A stretch of 64,000 bases of DNA from Ignavibacteria bacterium (GTDB lineage: Bacteria > Bacteroidota > Ignavibacteria > Kapaibacteriales > UBA2268), in NCBI GenBank assembly GCA_016844745.1, contig JAERMQ010000013.1, positions 72,530-136,529 of the forward strand, written 5' to 3'. Each line of letters starts with the position of its first letter. Within the stretch, counting starts at the first letter, position 1. The notes below the pieces were generated by a model. It saw nothing but the letters and a program-made list of their open reading frames with translations, did no database searches and had not been told where the DNA came from. Positions 2,675 through 48,129 of this stretch are shown here, piece after piece. The translations under genes and the position numbers were made by a program.

Positions 2675-3013
2675 ATGGAAAATAGAATACAAAACGATTA
2701 TTCAGCATATTTGCTTGGAAGAATCAAAAAAGCAATATTGAATGTAGAACCTTCTGCTGAAGTATATCTTTTTGGTTCCAGAGCGCGGGATGATTTTAAG
2801 GAAGATTCTGATTGGGATTTACTGATTTTATTATCTGCCGTTATAAATATGGATATTAAAAAAAGGATTGTTCACAATTTGCTGGAAATTGAAATTTCGG
2901 AAAATCAGACCTTCAATAGAATTTATTATAATTATGATGAATGGCACTCCAGCAAGTTAATTCAAGCAACCCCTTTCTACCAGAGTGTATCGAAGGATGC
3001 TATAAAATTATGA
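2675..3013 (+). CDS. Nucleotidyltransferase-domain protein (MNT-type; antitoxin partner of a HEPN protein)
   Basis: GS-x9-D-x-D minimal nucleotidyltransferase motif (LFGSRARDDFKEDSDWDLLILL). 112 aa. Stop overlaps the start of the following HEPN ORF (ATGA). Confidence 0.7.
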   Translation: MENRIQNDYSAYLLGRIKKAILNVEPSAEVYLFGSRARDDFKEDSDWDLLILLSAVINMDIKKRIVHNLLEIEISENQTFNRIYYNYDEWHSSKLIQATPFYQSVSKDAIKL

Positions 3014-3420
3014 ACGAAGATGTTAAAATAATCATAAACTATAGGATCGAAAAAGCCATTAAATCTTTAGATGAAGCTGAATATTTAATAAATGGAAATA
3101 TGTGGAATCTCACCGTTAATCGTTTATATTATTCCTGCTATTATTCCATAATTGCTTTGCTTCTCTGTATTGAACAATCGCCAAAAACTCATAAAGGAGC
3201 AAGGAATTTATTTCATCAGCATTTTATTGCCACTGGAATATTTAAATACGAATTTGGTGAATTATTAACAATTCTTTTTGATGCAAGACAAGAAGGTGAT
3301 TATAAAGATTTTGTTGAATTTGATTCATCCGATGTTTTACCTTGGATTAATCTAACAAAAGAATTTGTCAAAAGTATCTCGCAATTTATTTATTCTAATT
3401 ATTTCAATATTGATAAATAA
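3010..3420 (+). CDS. HEPN-domain protein (HepT-like putative RNase toxin)
   Basis: Small all-helical protein with an R-x4-6-H motif (ARNLFHQH). It immediately follows the MNT-like gene with a 4-bp overlap. Start set to the ATG at 3010 (MNEDVKII) rather than the longer listed ORF. Confidence 0.6.
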   Translation: MNEDVKIIINYRIEKAIKSLDEAEYLINGNMWNLTVNRLYYSCYYSIIALLLCIEQSPKTHKGARNLFHQHFIATGIFKYEFGELLTILFDARQEGDYKDFVEFDSSDVLPWINLTKEFVKSISQFIYSNYFNIDK

Positions 3421-3589: not shown

Positions 3590-5797
3590 ATGAGAATTTT
3601 TTATACTATCTTTTTAGCAATTTCATTTTTAAGTATAAGCGTACTTGCCGAACAAAATACACCATATAACCTCAAGGAAGGTACCCCGGATTCCGGAGTA
3701 AAACTTGCAACCCTTGAGCCTCCAAACGGAAGAGTGTATCACGGTGTAGGTCAGGCAGGTCAGGGTGTAAATGAATATTGCACTGCACTTGGCGATTCCA
3801 CAATCCAACCTGCTGTGGTAAAATATTATTATGATATTCCCGGAACTCGAGGAAATAAATTTATCGAATTACGGCAGACATTAGCCAATGAAAAGAAAAT
3901 CGGTCGCATTCCCGAACTCAGCATTGCAATGACAGACGGTAAAGTATGGACGGACAGCATAATCGCAACCAGCAGTCTATATGATAAAATCATCGATACA
4001 TTAGCTCTAATCTGCAAAGATTACGGATTGAAGATGTTCATTCGCCCCGGATTCGAGTTCAATGGCTCATGGAATCCATATCATCCGTATTTGTATCCGA
4101 AAGCATTCCAAAAGATAGTTAATCGATTTCGCACAATTGCCAATAAAGATTCCCTTGCTTTCGAATGGTGCTATTATGCCGGCGGTAATGCCCCGAATGA
4201 TTTTGATTCTATTGATTCCCGCGGCTACCGTTGGTATCCGGGTGATACCGCTGTGGATTGGTTTTCTTTGGATGTATTCAATGTAACTGATTTTCATCCT
4301 GATTCTGCTGCAATGCTTAGGGGTAAATTAACAACTAAAGGTAAATCCGAAAGGTTTTTATCGATGGCACGCGCGAAAGGAAAACCGGTTTATTTATCCG
4401 AAACAACTGCCCAGGGGATTAATATTTCCTCGAATCAATCCGACAGCCAGAATGACTGGAATAAATGGTTTGTTCCGTTTTTTAAATTTATTTCAGATCA
4501 TCCTGAAATTAAGGGATTCAATTATATCAATTGGGATTGGAGTAAGTACCCGACCTGGGCTGCATGGGGCGATGCCCGAATAGAGAACAGTCCTTATATT
4601 ATTTCAAAATATAAAGAAGAGATGAAGAACCCGAAGTATATTCATCTTCCTTTCAAAACAACCGTAAAAGATACATTCAATCTGACTCCGATAACCGAAT
4701 TAGGAACGAATTTATATAAAACATTTCCGGGAGGACTTTATCCCGAAGGCTCAAATACACGCCCTACGAACCATAACGATGCCGGGAAAAAGAAATCTAT
4801 CGAAATTATACCACTCGATACAACAGGGGAATCGAACGAGCAACAAGGCAAAATAGTTCTTTTATCTGTTGGAATGTCGAACTGTACCCAGGAATTCTCG
4901 ACTTTCAAACCAATAGCAGATACTTTAAAAGCAAAAAATCCGAAACTCGTGATTGTCGATGGCGCTCAGGGCGGTCAGACAGCATCAGTAATCCAAAATC
5001 CAAATGCGAATTTCTGGAGTGAAATCAATAGAAGATTAGGTTTAGCCAAAGTATCTGCCCAACAAGTCCAGATTGTCTGGCTCAAAGAAGCAGATGCCGG
5101 ACCCAAGAATGACTTTCCGGTTCATGCACAAACATTGACAAAGGAATTGAAGATAATCTGTCAAATATTGAAAGCCAAATATCCGAATATAAAAATATGT
5201 TATTTTTCAAGTCGGACTTATGGAGGCTATGCCACTACTACACTCAATCCCGAGCCTATGGCTTATGAAACCGGCTTCTCTGTGAAATGGTTAATCGAAT
5301 CTCAAATCAACGGCGATACTACTCTGAGTTATGAAGGCAATAATGTCCGCTCTCCGTGGTTATCGTGGGGACCATATCTTTGGGGAAACGGCACGAAACC
5401 GCGTTTGGATGACGGATTAGTATGGCTCGAAACTGATTTTGTAACTTCGGACTACACTCATCCTTCGCCATCCGGTCGGCTCAAAGTAGCTCAATTACTG
5501 CTTAAATTCTTCACGAATGATGAAACTGCAACTCCTTGGTTCTTAAAGAGTGGGAGCACTTTAGTTGAAGAAAATGAAATTTCTGATATAATTGAAGTAA
5601 ATCCTAATCCTGCTTATGATTATATTTATTTAAATAATATGAATGAACAATTAGAAAAAACAATTACCATATATTCCATTGAAGGATTTGAAGTTTTAAC
5701 TACAAAAAATATTTCGCAAATCTATATTGGCAGCCTAGCCGCGGGAGTTTATATCATAAAAGTAGCGGGGAAGAGTTTCAAATTTGTGAAGATGTAG
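3590..5797 (+). CDS. Secreted multidomain carbohydrate-active enzyme: GH26-like glycoside hydrolase domain + SGNH/GDSL-type esterase-like domain + T9SS (Por) C-terminal sorting domain
   Basis: Signal peptide. IRPGFEFNGSW resembles the GH26 acid/base motif (RFGHEMNG-W) and YLSETT is a candidate nucleophile region. The central LLSVGMSN...DGAQGG segment looks like an SGNH hydrolase block. The C-terminal ~80 aa (IYSIEG...GVYIIKV...FKFVKM) has the pattern of a T9SS CTD. Confidence 0.5.
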   Translation: MRIFYTIFLAISFLSISVLAEQNTPYNLKEGTPDSGVKLATLEPPNGRVYHGVGQAGQGVNEYCTALGDSTIQPAVVKYYYDIPGTRGNKFIELRQTLANEKKIGRIPELSIAMTDGKVWTDSIIATSSLYDKIIDTLALICKDYGLKMFIRPGFEFNGSWNPYHPYLYPKAFQKIVNRFRTIANKDSLAFEWCYYAGGNAPNDFDSIDSRGYRWYPGDTAVDWFSLDVFNVTDFHPDSAAMLRGKLTTKGKSERFLSMARAKGKPVYLSETTAQGINISSNQSDSQNDWNKWFVPFFKFISDHPEIKGFNYINWDWSKYPTWAAWGDARIENSPYIISKYKEEMKNPKYIHLPFKTTVKDTFNLTPITELGTNLYKTFPGGLYPEGSNTRPTNHNDAGKKKSIEIIPLDTTGESNEQQGKIVLLSVGMSNCTQEFSTFKPIADTLKAKNPKLVIVDGAQGGQTASVIQNPNANFWSEINRRLGLAKVSAQQVQIVWLKEADAGPKNDFPVHAQTLTKELKIICQILKAKYPNIKICYFSSRTYGGYATTTLNPEPMAYETGFSVKWLIESQINGDTTLSYEGNNVRSPWLSWGPYLWGNGTKPRLDDGLVWLETDFVTSDYTHPSPSGRLKVAQLLLKFFTNDETATPWFLKSGSTLVEENEISDIIEVNPNPAYDYIYLNNMNEQLEKTITIYSIEGFEVLTTKNISQIYIGSLAAGVYIIKVAGKSFKFVKM

Positions 5798-5875: not shown

Positions 5876-6433
5876 ATGACTGGCATTATTGACCTAAAAT
5901 CAGAATTAAAACCTTATTTAAACTCTTATGAAAATATTCTCTGGGTTGGACAACCTAAGAAAGGAATAATAATTCAAAGTTCTGAGTTAATTATGATTCT
6001 ACAAGGTATTTTCTTTTGTGGATTTGGAATTCTTTTGTTTTCGATTGTTATAAAAGCTGAAGTTCCTATCATTATCAAAATCTTTGTCTTTGTTATTATG
6101 ATAATGGGTTTGTATTTTTTATTTGGTAGAATGATGTATGATGCAATACGAAGAGGAAAAACAATTTATGGAGTAACCGATGAAAGAATTATTATGAAAG
6201 AAGGAATAATATTTAAAAAAGTAAAATCTCTAAATATCAGAACTATTTCTGATATTGGATTTGAAGAAAAATCAGATGGAAGCGGGACAATTTTTTTTGG
6301 AACAAAGAACATTTTTAATTTTTTGACTGGCTTGAATTGGCGGTCAAGTATGAAACCAACTCCATCAATAGATAAAATTCAAGAAGTTAGAAAAGTATAT
6401 AATCAAATTATTGAACTTCAGAAGAAAAAATAG
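5876..6433 (+). CDS. Membrane protein with a bacterial PH (bPH_2/YdbS-like) domain
   Basis: Two predicted TM helices followed by a GVTDERIIMKEG...KSLNIRTISDI pattern typical of the membrane-anchored PH-like DUF304 family. Confidence 0.4.
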   Translation: MTGIIDLKSELKPYLNSYENILWVGQPKKGIIIQSSELIMILQGIFFCGFGILLFSIVIKAEVPIIIKIFVFVIMIMGLYFLFGRMMYDAIRRGKTIYGVTDERIIMKEGIIFKKVKSLNIRTISDIGFEEKSDGSGTIFFGTKNIFNFLTGLNWRSSMKPTPSIDKIQEVRKVYNQIIELQKKK

Positions 6434-6543
6434 AAATCATTAACCAAAAGGATTAGTTTTTTTGAAAGGAAGACTCTCCTCCAACTGATTAGCCAGTAAA
6501 ATCCCTTTCAACTATTACTTGAATATATATTTATTTACATTCC

Positions 6544-7122
6544 TTATCTTTTACGAAAAATTATCTTTTCTTCTACCTGTTTGAACTCAATATCAAATTC
6601 ATCAAAAACAACCTCCCTGCCGATTATCATATCATCAATTTCTTCATCCTGAATCCATGCAAAACGATTTTTGATTCTATAACCATCGATTTCAATTTCA
6701 TTCTCCCTCATAAGAAAATTAATTTTACTACCAAAACCTTCGGCAAAACCCATTATTTCATGCTCATCCCTTTTGAATCCAAGTTCTTCACCGAAATTAT
6801 AGTTAATTATTGAAATATCAGCTCCACTATCAATCAACATTCTTTCTTGTTTAATATTCCCATCAGGTAAAATAAAATCTACAGGATAAATTGGCTTCCA
6901 TTCATGTTTTGAAATATTTTTTATTTTAAATGTTAGAATACGGTATGCATCATATTGTTTTGGAACTTTAAAAGTAGAAAATGTCAAATTCTTTTGCATC
7001 ATTTTCTCATCAATTTCATTGTATGAATCAGCGTATTCAACAATTTTTTCATCTACAATTGCTATTACTTTTCCCCAATATTTAGAATTGTGGAAAATTT
7101 CTCTTTGCCAATCATCTTTCAT
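6544..7122 (-). CDS. Fusion protein: N-terminal small domain (resembles DUF5678 by eye, unverified) + retropepsin-like (clan AA) aspartic protease domain. Paralogue of 47539..48129.
   Basis: DSGAD (D-S/T-G-A) aspartic protease motif (LIDSGADISI) and a C-terminal IIGREVVFD flap/dimerisation-like region. ~50% identical over its full length to the protein at 47539..48129. Confidence 0.55.
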   Translation of the reverse strand: MKDDWQREIFHNSKYWGKVIAIVDEKIVEYADSYNEIDEKMMQKNLTFSTFKVPKQYDAYRILTFKIKNISKHEWKPIYPVDFILPDGNIKQERMLIDSGADISIINYNFGEELGFKRDEHEIMGFAEGFGSKINFLMRENEIEIDGYRIKNRFAWIQDEEIDDMIIGREVVFDEFDIEFKQVEEKIIFRKR

Positions 7123-7302
7123 TTTATCACCTTATAATTTATAGTAAAATTTCTTTGAAGAATTAATGTTCATTTTATTTTATTCATACTTATCAACCAA
7201 AGCAAATTACTTCCGTTAATACTCTATAATGCTTCCTTCGAAAATTTTTAATGATAACAGTGATTGTTGAAAAGTTTGTTAATATGTATAAAATCAATTA
7301 TT

Positions 7303-7524
7303 TTATAGAGAATTAAATTCCTCAACAGTTAATCCCGCTTGAATTATTAATTTTTTCAATATTCCAATTCCAAGTTCTTTATGTTGAGGAACAGAAAGTG
7401 TGTATATATAATTTTCTTTAACCATCATAACATGAGAACCAACTTGTCTATCAATTATCCATCCGACATTTATAAATTTTTTGACAGCTTGAGAACCGGA
7501 AACAAGTATAAGTTTGTGGCTCAA
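7303..7524 (-). CDS. hicA: HicA-family mRNA interferase toxin
   Basis: 73 aa, pattern KK...GW...RQ.GSH.......IYTLSVP.H.KELG.G.LK.I..QAGL matches the YcfA/HicA family. 4-bp overlap with the upstream hicB. Confidence 0.75.
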   Translation of the reverse strand: MSHKLILVSGSQAVKKFINVGWIIDRQVGSHVMMVKENYIYTLSVPQHKELGIGILKKLIIQAGLTVEEFNSL

Positions 7525-7721
7525 ACCATAACCTCAACTGTTAGCATTTCAGATTTTTTTGCTTTATCATTCATGACAGCTAACCAGCCTACAATCGCTT
7601 CTTTAATATTTTCCGTTGCTTCGGATATAGTTTTTCCTTGAGAAAAGCATCCTGGCAAAGCAGGCACTTCGGCTACATAATAACCTGATTCGTCCAATTC
7701 AATATTTACTTGGAAATTCAT
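7521..7721 (-). CDS. hicB: HicB-family antitoxin (UPF0150)
   Basis: 66 aa, YYVAEVPALPGCFSQGKTISEATENIKEAI matches the HicB N-terminal RNase-H-like fold signature. Translationally coupled to hicA. Confidence 0.7.
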   Translation of the reverse strand: MNFQVNIELDESGYYVAEVPALPGCFSQGKTISEATENIKEAIVGWLAVMNDKAKKSEMLTVEVMV

Positions 7722-7814
7722 TTATTTATCCTCTTATCGTTTTTCATTTTTTAAATCCATTTTAAGTCAAAATTTAATTGAAGATTAATTAATAATTTTA
7801 TTTTATTCCAATAT

Positions 7815-10800
7815 TCATCTTACTACAGCAAATTTCCTGCGTTCATACTCAACTGTGCTGCCGTCTGCTTTGGTTTCGCGAACATAAAATAAATAAATAC
7901 CCGGGTCGATTAGATTGCCGTTTCTATTATGCAAATCCCAATCGACACCGCCATTACCGTCAATCTCTTTCAAGCGAGCAATTAATTCACCCTGAATTGT
8001 AATGACCACAACTTCACATTTTGAGGGTATTTGTGCAAAAGTTAAATGATTTGCATCTCCTAATTTAATAGGATTAGGATAGGCAAATGCATCATCTCCA
8101 TTCGGTGAAGTAAATAAAAAAGATAGAGAATTGCCCGCTCCTGTGGTCATCAGATGTTCCGAATTAGATTTTACATTTTTGACAGTTAAAGTATATGTTT
8201 TACCAAGAGCAGCAATTAACTCACTCGGTTCCAATTCAATTGATACTTGAGCAGGATTGCTTTGCTTTTGATTTACTTTGATGATTTTACCATAAGGCGA
8301 AATCATATAATTACTAATTTGTTCGGCAGTCTGCTGCTCAGTTGGTTCGGAAAATTCGACTAATAATTGAGTTCTGGAAATTACTTCGAGGCTTTTCAGA
8401 TAAAGGAATATTTCTTTTTGTTGTTTACTTAATTCCAGTGGTAAATAGTTTTCTTTTGTAGGCATACGCCACATATCCCTGAACGATTTACATCGAAGGA
8501 TATATTGACCTTCTGTTATAAAATCCGGTAAGGTAACAATTAAACTCGAATCGTTACCAAAGACAACACTTTTAGCTATTGTAAGGAATTCTTTTTTTAC
8601 ATCCAATAATTCAAATAAAGCAGGCTCGAGAGTTTTATTACCGAGCTTACCTGTGTATTTGACCAACAGACGATTACCATTTTGAAATTCTGCCGATTGT
8701 GCAAATAACGGATTATGTGTATAAATTTTAACAATATTTGTATCCAATAATGAAAATTGACTGTAGAAGTCAGTCATGTTACTATTATATGAACGTATTA
8801 CAAAAGAATAGAATTTATTTTTTCCTAAATTTTCAATGTTGATTGTATTGGAGGTAGTCTGCCCAACCGGGTCTGCAAATACGGATTTACCTTCGAACCG
8901 CAGCGAATCAATTTCGTATCCTTCTGCATCAGGTGAAGGATACCATTGAAAGAAAGCAGTCGAATCGCTCGTTGCCCAGCCATCGAATGATGTAGGTGCC
9001 GATGGTCCCTGGAATTGTGCATTAAATTCATAGAACACTGTCTCATTGCCGGTATTGAAGCCTATTTCATTCACTCCGTTGTTATTGAAATCATAAATTA
9101 CCGCGCTATTCGAAAATGCATTATTATTCCAGTAAAGTGGTTTCATATTCTGGTTTTTTTTATCCCATTTCAAAATATACAAATTCGGAAAAGGCATAAG
9201 CACTATCTCATCACCCGGTTCTTTATCCAAATTCCCTGCAGACACACCATTTCGGTAATCAATACCGCTCCGAACTCCGTAAACATAATCTGTCCAAATT
9301 GATTTATATGAATTTGTTCCAATCTTCTGAAAAATTCTATATTTCCATATAATTACTCCGTTATCATTTTCATTTGGAAGAAGACTACTATCAATGGAGC
9401 CAATAAGTATTTCAGGAATACCGTTACCATCAATATCAACGGTAGAAATATAAAAATTCTCATCAGAGTTGCCGCTTGAATCAATAAATTCAAGATTCAA
9501 AGCGCCCTTCGAAAATTCATAAAACATAATATCTCCACTCCGGTTTCCAAAACACAATTCAATATTTCCATCACCGTCGAAATCACCAATAGCAAGTCCC
9601 GGTAGTGTGCCGATATGCTTCCTTTCTCTGTTTGAATCTAATGCCATTGTCATTAGTTCATAACGATTGTTCATAAAAGTATAAATCAAATATGATGTGT
9701 CGCTGGATGCAATCAGTTCTGGATTACCGTTTCGGTCGAAGTCATACATTCCGGCAGCCCAGAAATTATGATATACTGTATCGGAAAAAATTTTGTTAGA
9801 AAAAGGATTTCCCGATTGGATTGATGCCTGAAAAAGTACTGATTTGCCTGAAGATTTTGCAAATACTTCCATAATTCCGTCACCGTTGGAATCGCCCATG
9901 CCAACCGGTATCCAAAGATTTGGAGTAGAATCCCTTTGAATGAATTTATTATCCTTGAATTGATATATTTTTGTGGGTCCCCAAAGTGCTGAAGCCATCT
10001 CATTAACAGCAATGCAAGGATAGCCGTCGTGATAAAAATCCGATACTTTATTTAGAAGATTCTCAGGTGGCAGGGAATAACCCTGCTGTATGAATTTATC
10101 CGAGGGCATTCCTTCCTGTGGAAGAGTGAAATTGAATTTGTTAATTACGGAATCACAACCTGTGCGAACAGCTACAGCCTCGGCTTCGTAAACGATTCCG
10201 GGCTGAAGGTCGTATGCTGTAATGGAATGAAACCTGCCGCTGGTTTCATATTCGCTTATTTCTTTAAATTCGGAATTGGAATTTAAAGGACGGAATCTTA
10301 CCGAAAATAGGCATTGACTCGAGGTTTGCGCCGCTGCCAGCAGAATTCTTTTACCGTTAAATATTGGATAAAGAATAATCAGTGAATCTATTTTTATTCT
10401 CGTCTTTTCAGAAGCAATCTCAATATATTTGCGAAATTCGATTGTATGAAAATTCTTCAAATTGACGATTACTCTTATAGTATAAACGCTGTCGGAATAG
10501 TTATCAACAGGGATTTCCGCTAATTTACCATCTATGATTTGCGAGTTTGTTTTAATATTCAATGTATCCCAGGGTTTAAGATTAAAGTATTGTTTAATTG
10601 TATCGGGTAAATCCCTTTTCGGGACATATACCGGGTCGATTCCTTTGCCGATAAGAACAAGATAATTATTGAATAAAGGAGTTGCTATCGAGCCGGTTAC
10701 AGGAATGGTTGTTTGATTTTTCCTGTTGAAAACCTGATTATTTTTTGGCGTTGAAATGTATAGGTGAGTTCCTCCAATAATATTTAAGGCTGCTTCGGCA

Positions 10801-20890: not shown

Positions 20891-21763
20891 ATGACCGGAA
20901 AAGTAGCAATGACACTTCAGCTTAATCAAGAAAAGGTAGCACAGACGCCCCCGTCTGTGCATAAACCAATTAAAGAAGAGGTATCACAAGTACCTCCGTC
21001 AGTGGATAATCTCATCCAAGAAAAGGTAGCACAGACGCCCCCGACTGTACATAATCCGATTAAAGAAGAGGTATCACAAGTACCTCCGTCAGTGGATAAT
21101 CTCATGCAAGAAAAAGTAGCACAGACGCCCCCGTCTGTACAGCATGAAAATGAACCAAAAAACTCAATGTCTTTAAATAATCTAATTCAAAACAAAGAGG
21201 CACAGACGGGGGCGTCTGTGCTACCAAGTGCAGATAATACTTCATCATTTCAACCAATAATAGATTTTACTTTTCATCAAAGAAACCTCCCACACTGGCA
21301 AAATCCAGGAAGTATATATTTTATTACATTTAGAACCTATAAAAATTTAATTCTTGATGATATTTCAAAACAAATAATTTATGAAAATATCATTTATTAT
21401 GGTAAACTTTTTTATAAGTTATTGTCATTTGTAATAATGCCGGACCATATTCATATTATTCTTCAACCCAATGAAATAGAAAAAAATATTTACGTAAACC
21501 TTTCCAAAATTATGCAAGCGATTAAAGGATATGCAGCCAAACAAATAATTAAGCATCTATCTCAACAGACAGAACAGACCTCACAAATTCAAGAGATTGC
21601 ACAGACGGGGGCGTCTGTGCTACTAAATTCCAATTTTCAAATAAAGAATGAGAATACATCGCAGAAAATTGCTTTCTTATTTTATCCATTTTCATATCTT
21701 TTTAAAATCGTTTTAATACTGTTCCTTTTGCGCATATTATATTTGCAAAGCTGTGTTCTTTGA
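20891..21763 (+). CDS. REP-associated tyrosine transposase (RAYT / IS200-like Y1 HuH transposase). The N-terminal ~90 aa as listed are translated from a REP tandem array and may not all be coding.
   Basis: Core FHQRNLPHW...IYFITFRT...MPDHIHIIL (HuH) ...KGYAAKQI (catalytic Tyr helix) matches the Y1_Tnp/RAYT family. The first clear in-frame Met before the core is MSLNNL (~21163). A 91-bp unit is repeated 3x in 20915-21150. Confidence 0.8.
   Translation: MTGKVAMTLQLNQEKVAQTPPSVHKPIKEEVSQVPPSVDNLIQEKVAQTPPTVHNPIKEEVSQVPPSVDNLMQEKVAQTPPSVQHENEPKNSMSLNNLIQNKEAQTGASVLPSADNTSSFQPIIDFTFHQRNLPHWQNPGSIYFITFRTYKNLILDDISKQIIYENIIYYGKLFYKLLSFVIMPDHIHIILQPNEIEKNIYVNLSKIMQAIKGYAAKQIIKHLSQQTEQTSQIQEIAQTGASVLLNSNFQIKNENTSQKIAFLFYPFSYLFKIVLILFLLRILYLQSCVL
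20939..21140. repeat. Array of three 22-bp palindromic REP copies (gcacagacgcccccgtctgtgc, 'CCCCC' orientation) embedded in ~91-bp tandem repeat units
   Basis: Copies at 20939-20960, 21029-21050 and 21119-21140, each within a repeated QEKVAQTPPSV...IKEEVSQVPPSVDNL unit. Confidence 0.85.
21200..21221. repeat. REP copy in inverted orientation (gcacagacgggggcgtctgtgc)
   Basis: Same palindrome with the central GGGGG instead of CCCCC. Lies just upstream of the RAYT catalytic core. Confidence 0.85.
21599..21620. repeat. REP copy (GGGGG orientation) within the 3' end of the RAYT ORF
   Basis: Exact 22-bp match to the copy at 21200. Confidence 0.85.
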
Positions 21764-33983: not shown

Positions 33984-34709
33984 CTATGTTTTGATTTGAG
34001 GGGGTATCCATTTAATAAAATCTTCTCGTTTTGGTGGGTTTTTCATCCATGAAGTATCAGGTATTGGATAAGAGAAGCATTCATTAACAGTTTTTATGTC
34101 TTCCATAATCACAAATTGAATCTTACCGTTTTTACTTGTCCATTTAATTCTTTTGGTTTCTATGATTTTTTTAATTAATAATAATGGCTGCCTAACATCT
34201 TCTTTTAAATATTCCAAAACAGCATCATATTCCCCTTTTGCCCAAAATGATGGTGCTTTAGCGCCATCCATATTATAAATAACAGTGCCGTTTTTTAAAG
34301 TAACTTCCTTTTTCTTCCCTTTTAGCTTACTGCCTTCTAAAGCTGTCTGTAAGCTAAGATAATAACCCACTTGAAATGTGACCCAAAGCATCATATCAAA
34401 ATGATTTAAAGCAAGTTGTCCACAAATATCATAGAGTCCTGATTCTTGGGCAAGAACATGAAAATCAAACGATGTTCCGTTCCATGTCACTATTTTATAT
34501 CCTCCATTGTGAAATTCTAGGAGCATATTAACTAAATCAACGGTTTCATCTTTTGATAATTGGGGAATCCCTTTCCAGATTTTTATTTCATCATTATCAC
34601 TAAAAGCAAGAGCAGCACAAGTGATTCCAAGAGGGGAATACTTTTCCCAAGAGCCGAAATTATTTGGAAATTCTTTTGCAATTTCCAAATCAAAGCAAGC
34701 AAATTTCAT
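33984..34709 (-). CDS. DEDDy-type 3'-5' exonuclease (PolB-exonuclease-like / DnaQ superfamily)
   Basis: Exo I (MKFACFDLE), Exo II (WNGTSFDFHVL) and Exo III (YLKEDV, Y-x3-D) motifs in the correct order and spacing. Confidence 0.55.
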   Translation of the reverse strand: MKFACFDLEIAKEFPNNFGSWEKYSPLGITCAALAFSDNDEIKIWKGIPQLSKDETVDLVNMLLEFHNGGYKIVTWNGTSFDFHVLAQESGLYDICGQLALNHFDMMLWVTFQVGYYLSLQTALEGSKLKGKKKEVTLKNGTVIYNMDGAKAPSFWAKGEYDAVLEYLKEDVRQPLLLIKKIIETKRIKWTSKNGKIQFVIMEDIKTVNECFSYPIPDTSWMKNPPKREDFIKWIPPQIKT

Positions 34710-34933: not shown

Positions 34934-35812
34934 TTATACTTCGAATAAACTAACTTCTTGTTCTTTTTTATAGCTTTTTATAATAGCCTGGTTATCAATA
35001 TCCCATATCCTTTTCAAATTATCAGTGTGAATGTAATCGTTATAGTACTTTTCGATAATATCGGATTTACGTATAGTATTAAGTCTATCGTGAATTGTCA
35101 TTACATTTTCCGGGTCTATTTCAATACCGATATAATTTCTTTGTAATTGTTTTGCAACTACCAAAGTTGTTCCGGTTCCTGCAAATGGGTCAAGGATTGT
35201 TTCATAAGGATTTGAGGAAGATAATATCACTCTTAATAATAATGATATCGGAGATTGTTGTTTATGAAATCTATCTCCATTTTCAGTACGAATGGCTTCA
35301 TCCCCAGCGTAATAACCGGATGTCAACTCGCGTATATCATCCCAAACATCAGTTACGAAAACACCGTTTTCATAAGCGTTTTTATAATTAGGTGGCAAGG
35401 GCGGAGAGATTCTTAATTTATTAAATATCCTTGCCTTTTCTCCTTTACAAGCAAAAGCAATTATTTGATAATGTTTGCCAAATTTATTTGAATTGGGGAC
35501 TGCAGAGGTTTTTTTCTTCCAAATAATCAAATTTTGCAATGACCATCCGGTTGTTCTCAAACAATTCAGTACATTCTCAGTATTTTTATCCCTTTGCATA
35601 AAATAAATCGCACCTCCGCTTGAAGTAATATTAAATATTTTAGAACAGACTTCCTTCATCATACTCCAATACTCTAAATCAGAAAGGTTATCATTATGAA
35701 ATCTATAATCCTTGTTTTGATTGAAGGGAGGGTCAAGAAATGTTAAATCAATTTTATCTTCGATTGAAGGTAAAATTTCCAAACAATTGCCATTATATAT
35801 TTTATTTTCCAA
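34934..35812 (-). CDS. DNA methyltransferase, beta-class amino-MTase (N6-adenine or N4-cytosine). No adjacent restriction endonuclease recognised.
   Basis: Motif IV DPPF (IDLTFLDPPFNQ) precedes motif I (ILDPFAGTGTT), the circularly permuted order defining beta-class MTases. Confidence 0.7.
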   Translation of the reverse strand: MENKIYNGNCLEILPSIEDKIDLTFLDPPFNQNKDYRFHNDNLSDLEYWSMMKEVCSKIFNITSSGGAIYFMQRDKNTENVLNCLRTTGWSLQNLIIWKKKTSAVPNSNKFGKHYQIIAFACKGEKARIFNKLRISPPLPPNYKNAYENGVFVTDVWDDIRELTSGYYAGDEAIRTENGDRFHKQQSPISLLLRVILSSSNPYETILDPFAGTGTTLVVAKQLQRNYIGIEIDPENVMTIHDRLNTIRKSDIIEKYYNDYIHTDNLKRIWDIDNQAIIKSYKKEQEVSLFEV

Positions 35813-35864
35813 ATATATCTCTATATAAAAATTATAACCAATATCATATAAATAATTTTATTCA

Positions 35865-36611
35865 TCATTTTAACATTGAAATTGATTTTGGTAATAAATC
35901 TAACTGATTATAATCAAATAATGTTTGATTTATATAAATACTTTGATTTTGAAGCATCAAAAAATTATAAATTTTCGATAATGTTGAGTCTCCAATACCA
36001 CTTACCTTCCTTAATTCAATTATTGTAGAAATATCATTGATATCTAAAGCTTTTTGAATTTTTGAAATAACTCTCGTATCTAAATCAATTTCTTTTTTAA
36101 TATCATTGATTCTTTTTCTCAGCAAATATGCTTTGAAAGTTTCGATTAAATCATCCTTGGAAAACTTATCATATTCATAAATTTCGACGGGTATTTCGCA
36201 TTTGCTTAAATATTCGAACATGATTTCTTTAACAGTTTTAGGGTCTAATCCTCCATTCTGCGCACCTAAAAGAGGAAAAGCAATTGATTCTATTTTTTGC
36301 TCATTATAAGTATCTAAAAATTTTTGAAGACCTTTCGTTAAAAATTCTATTTTGGAAGGAAATCTCCAATGTTTTTTCGTTGGAAAATTTAAAATCCATT
36401 TTTTGTCAGTTTTATAAATCCATAATTTTCCTATTTCAATTTGTTTTGCATCACAAAATTTTACATACTTTTCGTACATATCAGGATATCTATACCTGTA
36501 TTCTAAAGCAATACCGGCTCCCATTTCACCATAACAGTTAACGGTATTAACTAAAGTCTGGTAACCCGATGTGAATAGATTCCCTTTAATGATTTTTATA
36601 TTATTTTTCAT
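35865..36611 (-). CDS. darG: Macro-domain protein, DarG-like antitoxin (ADP-ribosyl hydrolase) with C-terminal HhH-like extension
   Basis: The N-terminal IIKGNLFTSGYQTLVNTVNCYGEMGAGIALEYRYRYP matches the macro-domain ADP-ribose-binding loop (G-D/N-I...VNAAN...GGGV). Sits immediately downstream of darT in the canonical toxin-then-antitoxin order. The C-terminus contains VSGIGDSTLSKI (HhH-like). Confidence 0.6.
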   Translation of the reverse strand: MKNNIKIIKGNLFTSGYQTLVNTVNCYGEMGAGIALEYRYRYPDMYEKYVKFCDAKQIEIGKLWIYKTDKKWILNFPTKKHWRFPSKIEFLTKGLQKFLDTYNEQKIESIAFPLLGAQNGGLDPKTVKEIMFEYLSKCEIPVEIYEYDKFSKDDLIETFKAYLLRKRINDIKKEIDLDTRVISKIQKALDINDISTIIELRKVSGIGDSTLSKIYNFLMLQNQSIYINQTLFDYNQLDLLPKSISMLK

Positions 36612-36613
36612 AT

Positions 36614-37351
36614 TTAATTAAGAGTATTGAAAAAATATTTTTTATTAGTATCAATTACAACCTCAATTTTAGACGAAAAATTCATGAATTCATTTTTCAA
36701 AAATATTTCGGATATAAAATATTTTGAACTTTCATTTGGACAAATAATTTGTGTAATATATTTTATATCAATAGATGGAAATACTAAAACTTCAGCACAC
36801 CTTTTCCTTCTCGTTTCAGCTTGAATGATTTTCACTTCTTCAGATCCTAAATAAGGTTCGTTAACAGCCCAAGTTTTCTGTTTTAATATTAACTCCAAGT
36901 CAAGAAAAAATAAATTATCAATTTCTTTATAAAACCTAGTTTTATCAGCACCAGCATTACCATCCGTAAAATAAACATTAGGTTGATAAATAACTTCTGG
37001 ATTTACAAACAGGACAACTAAATCATCTTGAATATCTTTTCTTTTAAATAACATAGGATTTTTTACCTGAAAATATAAGGAAGCGCAATCATGGAGTTTG
37101 ATATTTGTATCTTTTATATATTTAAATTCTCTTCTATCCTGAATTTCTTTCATAGAAATATCTTGCTTTATTAGCCCTCGTTTGTATGCTTCATTATGTG
37201 ATAGAATGCCATATCTGAGTATATTTTCTACATTATTTTTATGAAGCAAATGTTGAAAATTATGAATATAATAGTTCTTTTTATTAAATCGAATTTTAAT
37301 ACAATTTTGATTTTGATCCGAATCATTTTTATAAAAGAAAATATCATCCAT
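36614..37351 (-). CDS. darT: DarT (DUF4433) ssDNA thymidine ADP-ribosyltransferase toxin
   Basis: N-terminal YYIHNFQHLLHKNNVENILRYGILSHN (cf. DarT YHITHIDNL..IL..G.L.HN), central FTDGNAG (cf. FTDRHAA) and C-terminal RRKRCAEVLVFP (cf. RRRMAEVLVWP with the catalytic Glu) match the DarT family. Confidence 0.7.
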   Translation of the reverse strand: MDDIFFYKNDSDQNQNCIKIRFNKKNYYIHNFQHLLHKNNVENILRYGILSHNEAYKRGLIKQDISMKEIQDRREFKYIKDTNIKLHDCASLYFQVKNPMLFKRKDIQDDLVVLFVNPEVIYQPNVYFTDGNAGADKTRFYKEIDNLFFLDLELILKQKTWAVNEPYLGSEEVKIIQAETRRKRCAEVLVFPSIDIKYITQIICPNESSKYFISEIFLKNEFMNFSSKIEVVIDTNKKYFFNTLN

Positions 37352-45500: not shown

Positions 45501-46277
45501 TAACTCCTCGATATATGGTTTCATTTGTTCGGTGCCAAGCGCACAATTCAATCCGACGCTTAATAAATACGGTGTATGGGCAATAGAAATAAGGAATGCT
45601 TCCAAAGTCTGACCTGATAATGTCCTGCCACTCTGGTCGGTTATAGTACCGGAAATCATTATCGGCAATGAATTTCCGCTTTGCTCAAAGTATTGGGAAG
45701 CAGCGTTAATAGCAGCTTTGCAATTAAGTGTATCGAAGATAGTTTCTATAAGTAGAATATCAGCACCGCCTTCAGCCAAACCTCGGATTTGTTCATAATA
45801 TGCAGTCACGAAATCATCAAAATAAAAGCGTCGAAAGCCCGGACGCTCTACATCGGGCGACATCGAAGCAGATTGATTTGTCGGACCGATAGCGCCGGCT
45901 ACGAATCTGGGTTTGTCGTTAAATTCATTTGCAACCTGCCGGGCTATTTTAGCAGATTCGTAGTTAATTTGAAAAACTAAGCTTTCAAACTTATAATCCA
46001 ACTGTGAGAGTCCATTGGCATTGAATGTATTTGTTTCGATAATATCAGCGCCGGCTTGCAGGTATTTGCGATGAATTTCCTTTATAGCTTCGGGTTGTGT
46101 CAGTGATAAAATATCGTTATTGCCTTTGATGTCGTAATCGAGATTACGGAATTGTTCACCGCGGAAGTCCTGTTCTGTCAAGCCGAGCCTTTGAATCATC
46201 GTGCCCATAGCGCCGTCGAGGACTAATATTCTTTCTTGAAGTATTTTATATAAAGTGTTGAATTTATTATTAAGCAT
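42597..46277 (-). CDS. metH: Cobalamin-dependent methionine synthase
   Basis: 1226 aa with the Hcy-binding (S-methyltransferase) domain, pterin-binding domain, B12-binding [10 protein letters not shown] motif, and C-terminal AdoMet-activation domain. Confidence 0.9.
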
Positions 46278-46467
46278 TTATTTCAAAATCAATCTTTATT
46301 TTTTTAAGTTCACAAAATCCGAACCACTCACGGTTTCAATAACGAAATAATTGTCAAAGAATTTTATTCAAATATGTTTTGAGAAAATATCTGATATAAA
46401 GGTTAAGAAGTAATTTATAAAAAGACATATATTTGGTATTTGTAAATTGAAGTGAAGAATCAGGTTA

Positions 46468-46776
46468 TCATGCGATTATCATGGATAAATCAACGTTATC
46501 AAAGAGCCTTGCAGAATGAAATACTGTCAGGATTCTAACATTATCGTCAATTAAATGATAGATAATTCTGTAATTACCATATATTAATTCCCTGATATCT
46601 TCCTTCTTAAGTTCAGGGATAATTCTTCCCGAAAAAGGAAAAATTTCTAACTTTTCGGTTACTTCAATAATGTTATCTATGGTAATATCAGCATATTTGG
46701 GAGAGTCTCTAAAAATGTATTCATATATTAATTTTAAGTCATCTCTTGCCTGCTCAGACCAGATTATCTTTTCCAT
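46468..46776 (-). CDS. RelE/ParE-family type II toxin
   Basis: 102 aa. IIWSEQARDDLKLIYEYI ... RILTVFHSAR pattern of ParE/RelE toxins. Overlaps the upstream small antitoxin gene by 13 bp. Confidence 0.65.
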   Translation of the reverse strand: MEKIIWSEQARDDLKLIYEYIFRDSPKYADITIDNIIEVTEKLEIFPFSGRIIPELKKEDIRELIYGNYRIIYHLIDDNVRILTVFHSARLFDNVDLSMIIA

Positions 46777-46955
46777 TCCAAAACCTGATTTTTTAATTCT
46801 GAATGCGAAATTGATTGACCAGCATTGACTTGTTGCAATCCTTTTTCAATTTTATAAATTAAAAACATTCTTTCCATAATATCATCAAATGTCGTTTCAG
46901 AATTGATATTTTCAGTTACTTCGATGAGTTTATCTTTTATTGATAATAATTCCAT
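46764..46955 (-). CDS. Putative antitoxin partner of the ParE/RelE-like toxin (small addiction-module component)
   Basis: ~63-aa acidic helical protein immediately upstream of and overlapping the toxin gene. Start taken at MELLSIKDK. Confidence 0.45.
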   Translation of the reverse strand: MELLSIKDKLIEVTENINSETTFDDIMERMFLIYKIEKGLQQVNAGQSISHSELKNQVLEWKR

Positions 46956-47048
46956 TTTAAAAAGCCTCCAAAAGTTAATAGAACTCAAATAACAGGTTTA
47001 ATATTATTTTTTACATAAAGATTCGATAAAGAATTTTATTAGACCTCT

Positions 47049-47489
47049 TTAATACATATCTACAACCCATTTACCATCATTGATTGGATTACCGATAATT
47101 CCCTGACTTTTAGGGTCAACCACCCAGTCCATTGTTTTGAGTACCAAATATCCGATTAAAGCCGGAACATTGTCATCTTTATTTTCCATTACTTGCATTT
47201 GAATAGTCCGCTCTTTTATTGTTATTTTTGCACCATCGAATATCCTAAGTTCAAGGCTGCCATTCCCAGTCTTTACAGGTGTTGATTTCGCAAAACGAAG
47301 ACCAAGTTCCTTAATAACTTTCGGAGGCAGGCAAAGATAGGCAGCACCGGTATCAACCAAAGCATCAATTTCTAAGCTCCGGATTTGATTAGGTTTGATG
47401 TAACCTTTATCAGATAACACAATATCATCATAGTTAGTTATCACTACTTTTTCTGACGTTCTACCCCTTTTATTTTCCCTTAGTTTCAT
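47049..47489 (-). CDS. Stand-alone retropepsin-like (clan AA) aspartic protease
   Basis: DTGAAY active-site motif (ALVDTGAAYLCLP) and C-terminal LIGYLVLKTMDWVVD flap/dimer region. 146 aa. Compare the AF_0612 / Asp_protease_2 families. Confidence 0.6.
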   Translation of the reverse strand: MKLRENKRGRTSEKVVITNYDDIVLSDKGYIKPNQIRSLEIDALVDTGAAYLCLPPKVIKELGLRFAKSTPVKTGNGSLELRIFDGAKITIKERTIQMQVMENKDDNVPALIGYLVLKTMDWVVDPKSQGIIGNPINDGKWVVDMY

Positions 47490-47538
47490 TTATTAGAACT
47501 ATTTAATTATAAAAATTCTATACGATGAAAATTATTAA

Positions 47539-48129
47539 TTATTGCATATTGTCCCTTTTTTTAAATATTATTTCTTCGTCTGCTTGTTTGAATTCGATAT
47601 CGAATAGGTCGAATACTGTTTCGCGTCCAATAATCAAATCGTTAATATCTTCATCCTGAAGCCATGCTACACGAATTTTAAAACGGTAGCTGTCAATTTC
47701 AATTTCCGTCTCTCTAATTAGGTATTCGACTGAACCGCCAATCCCTATAACGATAGAAACTGATTCATGTTTGCCTTTAGTAAATCCAAGTTTTTCACCA
47801 AATTTTTTGCCGACTGCTGTAATATCGGCTCCACTATCAATCAATACATTTTCAGAAATATTACTGCCATCGTCAAGAAAAAACATTATCGGATATTCAG
47901 GATACCACTCATGCAATTTCATACTTTTAAGTCTCAAAGGTAAAATTCGGTACAAATCAGGTCTTTTAGGAACAGCAAAACATGAAAATTTTTGAGTGAT
48001 TATTTTTGCCTTTTTTTCTATTTCATCATAATCATCAGCGACTGCAATTATTTTATCATCTGCAATAGCTATGATCCTTCCCCAATATTCCCGGTTGTTG
48101 AACATTTCCTTTTGCCATTCGTTTTTCAT
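47539..48129 (-). CDS. Fusion protein: N-terminal small domain (resembles DUF5678 by eye, unverified) + retropepsin-like aspartic protease. Paralogue of 6544..7122.
   Basis: LIDSGADITAVG active site. ~50% identity to 6544..7122 including the N-terminal EYWGRIIAIADDKIIAVADDYDEI segment and the C-terminal IIGRETVFDLFDIEFKQ. Confidence 0.55.
   Translation of the reverse strand: MKNEWQKEMFNNREYWGRIIAIADDKIIAVADDYDEIEKKAKIITQKFSCFAVPKRPDLYRILPLRLKSMKLHEWYPEYPIMFFLDDGSNISENVLIDSGADITAVGKKFGEKLGFTKGKHESVSIVIGIGGSVEYLIRETEIEIDSYRFKIRVAWLQDEDINDLIIGRETVFDLFDIEFKQADEEIIFKKRDNMQ

Follow-up and report, generated by a model that had tools for sequence, protein, structure and literature searches.

What does a retroviral-type aspartic protease do in a bacterial cell when it is joined to a small domain of another kind and lies beside toxin-antitoxin (TA) genes? 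The question is raised by two genes in a stretch of 64,000 nucleotides (the window) from the metagenome-assembled genome (MAG) GCA_016844745.1 of an Ignavibacteria bacterium (contig JAERMQ010000013.1, positions 72,530 to 136,529, forward strand). Each gene encodes an N-terminal DUF5678 domain and a C-terminal retropepsin domain in one polypeptide (fusion 1 and fusion 2, Table 1). In the reading that we tentatively favor, each fusion is the single-chain form of a self-contained two-component module, a DUF5678 partner or regulator plus a retropepsin, in which the chain would be a zymogen and the role TA-like. The link of DUF5678 to a retropepsin through fusion and fission, with the domain boundary set to the residue, is new.

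When aligned without gaps over their full length, the two fusions share 103 of 192 residues (54%; E = 1e-76), a likeness that lies beyond chance given this E value and is close to the roughly 50% identity originally predicted for the pair. In fusion 2, Pfam places DUF5678 (PF18929) at amino acids (aa) 13 to 55 (E = 2.2e-7; 31 bits, cutoff of 23.2), in agreement with an earlier by-eye reading of the N-domain, and Asp_protease_2 (PF13650) at aa 94 to 170 (E = 3.5e-6; 28.1 bits, cutoff of 24.3). Fusion 1 matches Asp_protease_2 with 37.2 bits (E = 4.9e-9) and DUF5678 with 18.3 bits (E = 0.002), which is under the 23.2-bit cutoff; its DUF5678 assignment is therefore based on the 54% identity to fusion 2 and on a family profile that retrieves bona fide DUF5678 proteins. 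The AlphaFold model of fusion 2 (pLDDT of 88.3) consists of an N-domain with a helix (residues 4 to 11), a hairpin (strands 19 to 23 and 26 to 31), a second helix (34 to 44), and a strand (49 to 52), then a low-confidence stretch at about 55 to 77 and a beta-rich domain at 78 to 191. Since neither fusion has a signal peptide, transmembrane segment, or hydrophobic segment (maximum Kyte-Doolittle value, KD(19), of 0.9), both are predicted to be soluble and cytoplasmic.

The protease part of fusion 2 contains W75/P77, D98-S99-G100, a flap of the form G129-x-G131-G, the segment I166-I-G-R169, and the C-terminal sequence FDIEFKQADEEIIFK, and the catalytic loop reads L-I-D98-S-G-A-D in both fusions. 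Across a 38-sequence alignment of the family, L96-x-D98-S-G-A-D, G129-x-G131-G, A155-W156, and G168-R169 are invariant or nearly so, and the C terminus is highly conserved (FDIEFKQADExIIFK). Among 173 non-identical members, W75 is retained in all 173, P77 and S99 in 172 each, G100 in 171, and D98 in 170. Whether DSGAD aligns to the retropepsin catalytic loop had been singled out in the original prediction as decisive; in a sequence profile search of the PDB, it aligned on the catalytic DTGA/DSGA of Ddi1 proteases (E = 3e-4), and the flap aligned with theirs as well. A Foldseek search of the PDB with the fusion model gave the proteases of HIV-2, SIV, EIAV, and HIV-1 as top matches (E from 6e-7; target TM of 0.6 to 0.72; 25 to 28% identity), with APRc of Rickettsia (5c9f) also among the structural matches. 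The catalytic loop, flap, and psi-loop motif, together with the single-lobe fold of the model, place the fusions among the clan AA retropepsins. The protease is best read as a homodimeric, cytoplasmic, retropepsin-type aspartic protease, with dimerization and proteolysis both predicted from sequence.

Support for a module of the two domains comes from homologues in which they are encoded separately. A metagenome scan with five stand-alone DUF5678 sequences as the query returned eight loci; together with L089, a separate find, these yielded five independent DUF5678/retropepsin gene pairs versus two solo DUF5678 genes (L092 and L094; L095 was uninformative). Most short "stand-alone" DUF5678 matches were fragments of fusion genes. 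At L089, the retropepsin gene starts 2 nucleotides (nt) after the free DUF5678 gene in a different frame, and in the L090/L091 pair the overlap is 16 nt. A 3.2-kb metagenome contig (L093, positions 1217 to 2698) has two consecutive pairs, which is a tandem duplication of the split module, and at L096/L097 a DUF5678 gene is followed by a retropepsin gene with a weaker protease match. A small gene followed by a larger and often overlapping one, the layout of type II TA operons, is thus present in L089, L090/L091, L093 (twice), and L096/L097; the earlier suggestion of a TA-like module gains support in this sense, as a matter of organization. The split-form proteases match the hidden Markov model (HMM) of the fusion protease (E about 4e-15), not the HMM of a 139-aa retropepsin subfamily that is also found in the window, and share with the fusions the C-terminal pattern ILGR...F..F.v.F. 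Because the two-gene form exists, the covalent link between DUF5678 and protease is dispensable, although in the window the two are one polypeptide.

The split genes also locate the boundary between the two parts. In a joint alignment, the stop/start junctions of L090 and of the first L093 pair (L093a) fall exactly after L63 of fusion 2, with MYVL*/MIRFPYS of the split form aligned on YRIL/PLRLKS. Free DUF5678 proteins mostly end 7 to 9 residues past the "VP" of the last strand, in a hydrophobic tail (...YIL, ...FIL, or ...LIL), which is the same place as the fusion junction. Over the 173 members, the junction has the consensus [RK]61-[FI]62-[LY]63/P64-[IV]65-R66-[FI]67-[KR]68-[ST]69, followed by H73-x-W75-x-P77-x-Y79. 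Leu occupies position 63 in 102 members, with Tyr in 32, Arg in 17, and Phe in 6; at position 64, 129 members have Pro, 16 Thr, 11 Ser, and 10 Ala. The junction has a higher information content than the N-domain (2.27 versus 1.84 bits), even though AlphaFold leaves it unstructured. Retroviral proteases have established Tyr/Phe-Pro cleavage sites; the type-1 pattern is a hydrophobic residue before Pro with beta-branched or aromatic flanks, and HIV protease, with a mature chain that starts PQITLWQRP, has its N terminus released at a site of this type. A fusion protease cut at the junction would start P-[IV]-R-F-...-W-x-P. By sequence, the junction resembles the retroviral autoprocessing sites and is a candidate site of cleavage.

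By analogy with proteases that carry N-terminal extensions, the single-chain fusion is probably zymogen-like. The attached DUF5678 domain would keep the protease poorly active, as N-terminal extensions do in Gag-Pol and APRc, until the enzyme itself cuts the [RK][FI][LY]/P[IV]R[FI] junction at L63/P64. Self-cleavage would leave two products, a DUF5678 protein and a protease, whose termini match those of the proteins encoded by the two-gene form, and the freed DUF5678 protein could then act as an inhibitor or antidote in trans or be lost. A conflict- or addiction-type (TA-like) accessory function would be likelier for such a module than a part in core metabolism. In a bolder version, which we regard as speculative and rather unlikely, the fusion is a chromosomal "mini-polyprotein" in which a covalently attached DUF5678 antidote restrains a cytoplasmic retropepsin, which frees itself by cleavage at the retrovirus-like [LY]/P junction. 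It would then represent a new class of TA or abortive infection (Abi) system with an aspartic protease as the effector, occurring fused and as two genes, spread horizontally among multicellular and giant bacteria, and forming a prokaryotic counterpart, possibly an evolutionary relative, of retroviral autoprocessing. If the modules are protease-based addiction or defense systems, they would bring a new kind of effector into the TA and defense repertoire and would help to explain some of the unannotated small genes in cyanobacteria, giant sulfur bacteria, and Bacteroidota/Ignavibacteria.

Inactivation recurs in the family, and its nonsense codons fall on one side of the junction. About 10 of 80 loci (approximately 12%) have disrupted copies. 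Seven of these have a single nonsense codon in an otherwise intact open reading frame (ORF) (L049, L064, L065, L070, L072, L073, and L075); others are frameshifted or internally deleted (L068, L085, L086, and L087/88). All seven nonsense codons lie in the protease part and none in the DUF5678 part, with four at the adjacent codons W75/Q76, where the protease domain starts (P about 0.009, with no post hoc correction). In the cases with a close intact relative to reveal the ancestral codon, the changes are TGG to TGA/TAG or CAA/CAG to TAA/TAG; for L064, whose nearest relative is 43% identical, it cannot be assigned. The nearest relative is intact in 7 of 7 cases and is 80 to 99% identical in 5 of 7, L064 and L072 having only distant intact relatives. 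Since stop-bearing copies have closer intact relatives, the nonsense events are independent and recent. Programmed stop codon readthrough at the domain boundary was considered and rejected as a conserved feature, as each stop-bearing copy has an intact nearer relative. Purifying selection on the intact copies is strong in both domains (omega of 0.06 to 0.17). Four further members (P0254, P0282, P0289, and P0314) are in-frame "mini" forms of 90 to 115 aa that retain DUF5678 and the C-terminal FDIEFKQADEEIIFK strand without the catalytic core; these may be decay products or antidote-only or dominant-negative forms. The stops in L073 and L064 lie near positions 6180 to 6235 and about 3648 of their loci, respectively. 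At L086, a frameshifted fusion gene (positions 4001 to 4536; 85 aa plus 80 aa) lies between nadA and the nadC/QRPTase gene, as if it had inserted into a cluster of housekeeping genes.

The DUF5678 domain also occurs outside the fusions. A profile of the N-domain retrieved 916 relatives from 1.8 billion representatives, 58 of them at E <= 1e-10, comprising stand-alone proteins of 60 to 80 aa, proteins with two or three tandem copies, and fused forms, with Pfam DUF5678 matches of up to 5.5e-32. As modeled, the domain is a helix-hairpin-helix-strand unit, and a fold search with it gave no fold match. Six of the proteins (P0260, P0280, P0306, P0322, P0333, and P0378) have two or three DUF5678 domains in tandem and no protease, some of them being extended by a helical region at the N terminus, which suggests that DUF5678 is a reusable binding module. 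A full-text literature search found no paper on DUF5678 biology, the single mention being in an unrelated plant-pathogen study.

Such a binding module would fit an adaptor, in which DUF5678 recruits a substrate or partner and stays attached like the ubiquitin-like (UBL) domain of Ddi1, the junction being the N-terminal dimerization strand of the protease; the fusion would then serve as a dedicated regulatory protease, with neither inhibition nor self-cleavage. The tandem repeats without a protease, the accessory domains of the Ddi1 proteases that are the closest PDB matches by sequence, the equally strong purifying selection on both domains, and the members in which P1' is not Pro are all in keeping with this alternative. 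It accords less well with the split form, which makes the covalent link dispensable, with the free DUF5678 C terminus that coincides exactly with the junction, and with the repeated loss of the protease half while the DUF5678 half is kept, which is easier to understand if the protease is the costly part. On balance, we consider an adaptor doubtful.

The distribution of the family identifies the genes as accessory rather than housekeeping. The family of proteins of about 200 aa forms 119 clusters in a set of 5.8 billion proteins, 5 of them in this MAG, which has at least five fusion copies. Among GTDB species representatives, 130 matches were found, with two copies in several genomes, mostly in cyanobacteria of the Oscillatoriales and Nostocales, in Thioploca, Thiomargarita, and Parabeggiatoa, and in Saprospiraceae and other Bacteroidota, with further matches in Desulfobacterales and Pyrinomonadaceae. 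The top GTDB matches of the Ignavibacteria protein are gammaproteobacterial (Thioploca and Thiomargarita; 47%), which suggests transfer between phyla. Of the neighboring genes, only 19 of 64 upstream and 12 of 67 downstream are near and on the same strand, and none is constant. The genes are thus multi-copy, patchy across phyla, repeatedly inactivated, and without conserved synteny or a conserved partner. This is in line with the accessory module originally predicted; uniform synteny with housekeeping genes, which would have spoken against it, was looked for and not seen.

Both fusions in the window abut a TA pair, the feature that first drew attention to them. In the direction of transcription, locus 2 reads fusion 2, 49 bp, a stand-alone 146-aa retropepsin gene (a gap of 50 bp had been anticipated), 60 bp, a small ORF, and a ParE/RelE-family toxin gene. 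The toxin foreseen here and an overlapping putative antitoxin are both present, in the order retropepsin, antitoxin, ParE. The small upstream ORF overlaps the start of parE by 13 nt, and its position and overlap are typical of an antitoxin; its sequence has only a faint RelB/ParD match (E = 0.046). With this ORF, the ParE gene has the arrangement of a ParE/RelE TA pair. Locus 1 reads hicB, hicA (4-nt overlap), 180 bp, fusion 1, an HicB gene followed by an overlapping HicA gene as in HicAB systems; the hicBA pair therefore lies upstream of fusion 1 and not, as had been stated, downstream of it. Both islets are low in GC (0.28 to 0.34 at positions 6001 to 8000 and 46001 to 48000, versus about 0.35 to 0.40 across most of the window). 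The window is TA rich, with a DarT-DarG pair and a HEPN gene in addition, and we estimate the chance of both fusions adjoining TA pairs at roughly 2%. In related contigs, a 73% identical fusion (L098) is flanked by a DUF2283 gene and a VapBC-like pair, and the 139-aa retropepsin genes at L082 and L083 are surrounded by DUF2281-PIN, ParE, and PemK pairs, with retropepsin, small ORF, and ParE in the same order again at L083. Two loci, L100 and L084, depart from this pattern and have ordinary genes around them.

A census of 142 immediate neighbors at 80 genome loci, with 142 genes at least five positions away as the control, gave a different picture. The commonest immediate neighbors were Epimerase/GDP_Man_Dehyd (13 to 14), DUF29 (6), ABC transporter (5), methyltransferase (5), Uma2 (4), GT1 (3), DUF2281 (3), and MNT-type nucleotidyltransferase (3) genes, compared with Uma2 (5), DUF29 (2), GT2 (6), and GT1 (4) among the far controls. 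At least two polysaccharide-cluster genes are present at 35 of 80 loci, mainly in Microcoleus and other Oscillatoriales with shared synteny. Two paralogue groups adjoin a gene for an NAD-dependent sugar epimerase/dehydratase, which lies 22 bp upstream in one group (L015, L021, L048, L054, L042, and others, in Microcoleus/Oscillatoriales) and about 168 bp downstream, followed by glycosyltransferase genes, in the other (L016, L027, L050, L061, and L075).

These neighborhoods raise the possibility that the protease acts in surface polysaccharide (O-antigen or exopolysaccharide [EPS]) biosynthesis, where it would regulate or mature one of the components, and is a lineage-specific gene of an ordinary pathway; it would then be a new regulator of envelope biosynthesis. 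The 35 loci include 11 of 11 from Microcoleus, most Oscillatoriales, several Nostocales, one Pyrinomonadaceae, and one Saprospiraceae. Epimerase/GDP-mannose dehydratase genes make up 14 of 142 immediate neighbors versus 2 to 3 of 142 far away, the gene of Thioploca (L002) has glycosyltransferase and methyltransferase genes at distances of 23 and 12 bp, and locus 2 of the window is 1.3 kb from a GT2/GT1 cluster that spans 49409 to about 60400. No such genes occur in Synechococcales (0/4), Thiomargarita (0/4), Bacteroidia (0/3), or locus 1 of the window, however, and much of the signal comes from related cyanobacteria with shared synteny. The fusion is cytoplasmic and tied to no single enzyme family, and several paralogues per genome and frequent pseudogenes do not suit a pathway gene. 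Polysaccharide clusters, moreover, are hypervariable islands that gather transferred genes. The link may be functional or may reflect such collecting of genes in surface islands, and we keep an envelope function as a rival that is quite improbable.

Several of these results weigh against a TA-like two-component module. TA neighbors are not enriched family-wide over the far controls, and classical TA families are rare; the predicted TA adjacency thus stands for both window copies and in Ignavibacteria-type contigs, not for the family. In Microcoleus, the gene keeps its place within polysaccharide clusters, and purifying selection on it is strong, a pattern that resembles stable vertical descent and not a selfish element. 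The split-gene examples recovered amount to five independent ones only. P1' is Thr, Ser, or Ala in about 20% of members, including fusion 1 (RIL/TF), and the junction motif could be merely the N-terminal, dimer-interface strand of the protease and never be cut. Finally, no mobility vehicle came to light, as no relatives were found in IMG/VR (2.9 million contigs), a plasmid collection, or PHROGs.

A phage or plasmid origin was rejected on the basis of the same searches, which bear equally on the notion that the fusion is a retroelement or phage protease, domesticated or in decay, that now has no role in the cell. That the best structural matches are retroviral proteases, at 25 to 28% identity, and that about 12% of copies are disrupted might be taken to favor such a relic. 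It is set against the lack of relatives in the virus, PHROGs, and plasmid sets, the lack of reverse transcriptase, integrase, or capsid genes near the loci, and the omega of 0.06 to 0.17 of intact copies, and we give it next to no credence.

The 146-aa retropepsin gene downstream of fusion 2 had suggested that the two proteases could form a heterodimer. Its product is 26% identical to the fusion protease over 74 aa (E = 0.013), does not match the fusion-protease HMM, and by sequence belongs to a separate subfamily of 138- to 139-aa "clan AA" proteins. Relatives of this subfamily are up to 89% identical in related metagenomes and 50 to 60% identical in Nitrospirota, Hydrogenedentota, and Desantisbacteria, and at least seven copies are present in this MAG. 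The 146-aa protein scores 46.9 bits against TIGR03698, related to that family and below its curated cutoff of 57.35, and matches the NCBIfam model of RloA at chance level (E = 0.067), which the fusions do not match. Its homologues start MGRTSEKV, and the window reads ...K-R-G-R-T-S-E-K, with AGG for the ancestral ATG (positions 47469 to 47489); an ATG seven codons upstream is used instead, which adds 7 residues.

Members of this 139-aa subfamily usually occur alone, without a DUF5678 partner, and adjoin a fusion at 3 of 82 loci (the window, L059, and L066), in either order. A dedicated heterodimer is therefore unlikely, given the 26% identity, the unrelated termini, and adjacency at only three loci. 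The 146-aa protein is probably not an obligate partner of the fusion, and the simplest explanation of the tandem arrangement is co-residence in the same islands. A wider proposal, that fusion and 146-aa retropepsin act on, or are controlled by, ParDE and HicAB as a protease-activated TA or Abi system, draws on the three cases of adjacency (49 bp in the window), on the recurrence of the order retropepsin, antitoxin, ParE in L083, and on the presence of a 139-aa-type retropepsin on the same contig at 3 of 5 fusion loci of the MAG. Each family, however, is mostly found alone, the order differs among the three adjacent pairs, the termini that would form the dimer interface are unrelated, and the TA pairs of the two window copies differ (HicAB versus ParDE), with none at L100 and most other loci. 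We regard this proposal as very improbable.

Comparison with known systems sets the two-component module apart from each of them. Retroviral proteases (HIV-1, HIV-2, SIV, and EIAV) share with the fusions the single-lobe clan AA fold, a D-[TS]-G-A loop, a Gly-rich flap, the G-R triad (IIGRE in the fusion, IIGRN in HIV), a W-x(1-2)-P before the first strand, and a preceding polypeptide joined through a hydrophobic/Pro junction. In contrast, the fusion gene is chromosomal and bacterial without a retroelement context, its partner is DUF5678 and not Gag or p6, about 11 residues separate the junction from W75 (5 in HIV), the C-terminal FDIEFKQADEEIIFK is specific to the fusion family, and autoprocessing, a property of the retroviral enzymes, is for the fusion a prediction. 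Ddi1/DDI2, the closest solved structures by sequence profile, likewise have an accessory N-terminal domain followed by a retropepsin; they are eukaryotic, and this domain is a ubiquitin-like beta-grasp rather than the helix-hairpin-helix-strand of DUF5678.

To our knowledge, few bacterial retropepsins have been studied (APRc, RimB, RloA, PerP, and SpoIIGA), none of them with DUF5678. RimB and RloA of Pseudomonas are small retropepsins with partners in the same operon, and a natural RimB-RimK fusion exists; unlike the fusions described here, their partners are RimK/RimA ATP-grasp proteins and RloB/RloC, their substrates are glutamate rich, and RloA is secreted. APRc (RC1339) of Rickettsia conorii is a bacterial retropepsin-like enzyme with an N-terminal extension and a structural match to the fusion. 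It is membrane embedded and conserved in one genus, whereas the fusions have no hydrophobic segment, have DUF5678, and are multi-copy and patchy. Autoprocessing of the extension of APRc depends on the catalytic Asp, and activity is associated with the processed form (PMC4140852).

The split form resembles type II TA operons in that a gene of about 70 aa overlaps one of about 130 aa. The fusion family resembles TA systems in being multi-copy and present in TA-rich lineages, in TA islands in Ignavibacteria-type contigs, and in that the larger component is the one that preferentially decays. Fused TA proteins are known as well, CapRel among them. The fusions differ in having no DNA-binding antitoxin domain and no family-wide TA enrichment, and toxicity and neutralization are predicted for them rather than known; we know of no TA toxin that is an aspartic protease. 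Among PADLOC models, window proteins and split-form proteases weakly match component B of PDC-M08 and PDC-M52 (E of 1e-5 to 1e-3; best, 1.4e-5). The B components of these unvalidated candidate systems are likewise retropepsins of about 120 to 140 aa; their A components differ, no PADLOC model matched any DUF5678 or N-domain sequence, and the window proteins do not belong to either system. The matches reflect generic retropepsin similarity. Retropepsins are not mentioned in the PADLOC "embedded defences" preprint, no published text on either candidate system was found, and a full-text literature search found no paper joining retropepsin-like proteases with TA systems or describing retropepsin-type defense modules. 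The fusions are outside the characterized bacterial retropepsin systems (APRc, RimB, and RloA) and any PADLOC model set; their organization resembles that of type II TA operons and fused TA proteins, and their proposed mechanism would resemble that of self-processing retroviral proteases.

Table 1. Features of the two fusion loci (coordinates are positions in the window)
Feature	Position	Strand	Product	Remarks
Fusion 2	47539..48129	minus	196 aa, HW421_1238	DUF5678 + junction + retropepsin
DUF5678 module of fusion 2	47941..48129	minus	aa 1-63	tail ...DLYRIL
Junction motif of fusion 2	47929..47952	minus	Y60-R-I-L63 / P64-L-R-L67	candidate cleavage site
Retropepsin module of fusion 2	47542..47940	minus	aa 64-196	
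Catalytic codons of fusion 2	47830-47838	minus	D98-S99-G100	
Stand-alone retropepsin	47049..47489	minus	146 aa, HW421_1237	gag-asp_proteas, 2e-9
Putative ParE-pair antitoxin	46764..46955	minus	63 aa	from ATG with upstream GGAGG
Putative antitoxin ORF, longer form	46764-46988	minus	74 aa	TTG start
ParE/RelE-family toxin	46468..46776	minus	102 aa	ParE_toxin, 2e-18; RelE_StbE, 37.8 bits (cutoff 27.9)
Fusion 1	6544..7122	minus	192 aa, HW421_1207	paralogue, same architecture
DUF5678 module of fusion 1	6934-7122	minus		
Junction of fusion 1		minus	YRIL/TFKIKN	
Catalytic codon of fusion 1	6829-6831	minus	D98	
HicB-like antitoxin	7521..7721	minus	66 aa	HicB_lk_antitox, 1.3e-11
HicA toxin	7303..7524	minus	73 aa	HicA_toxin, 3.1e-14

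An origin of the locus 2 genes as integron cassettes was considered and rejected, the 49-bp spacer 3' of fusion 2 being too short for an attC site. Other parts of the window also contain genes of TA, defense, or mobility type. The DarT gene (36614 to 37351; PF14487, 1.8e-37) and a gene for a macro-domain, DarG-like protein (35865 to 36611) form a TA pair in a low-GC region (0.27 to 0.31; 34934 to 37351, minus strand), followed downstream by genes for an N6/N4 DNA methylase (34934 to 35812) and a PolB-like exonuclease/RNase H-fold protein (33984 to 34709). The DarT/DarG/methylase region looks like a further defense or TA islet. Near the window start, a transfer-messenger RNA (tmRNA) gene with the tag ANNSYAMAA lies at 417 to 778 on the minus strand, and the gene for the HEPN-domain protein (2941 to 3420, plus strand) lies 2 kb from it; tmRNA genes are common integration sites of islands. 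A 290-aa ORF on the plus strand (20891 to 21763) contains an IS200-like Y1 transposase domain toward its C terminus (E = 3.4e-6) and, as judged by eye, seems to have repeats in its N-terminal region.

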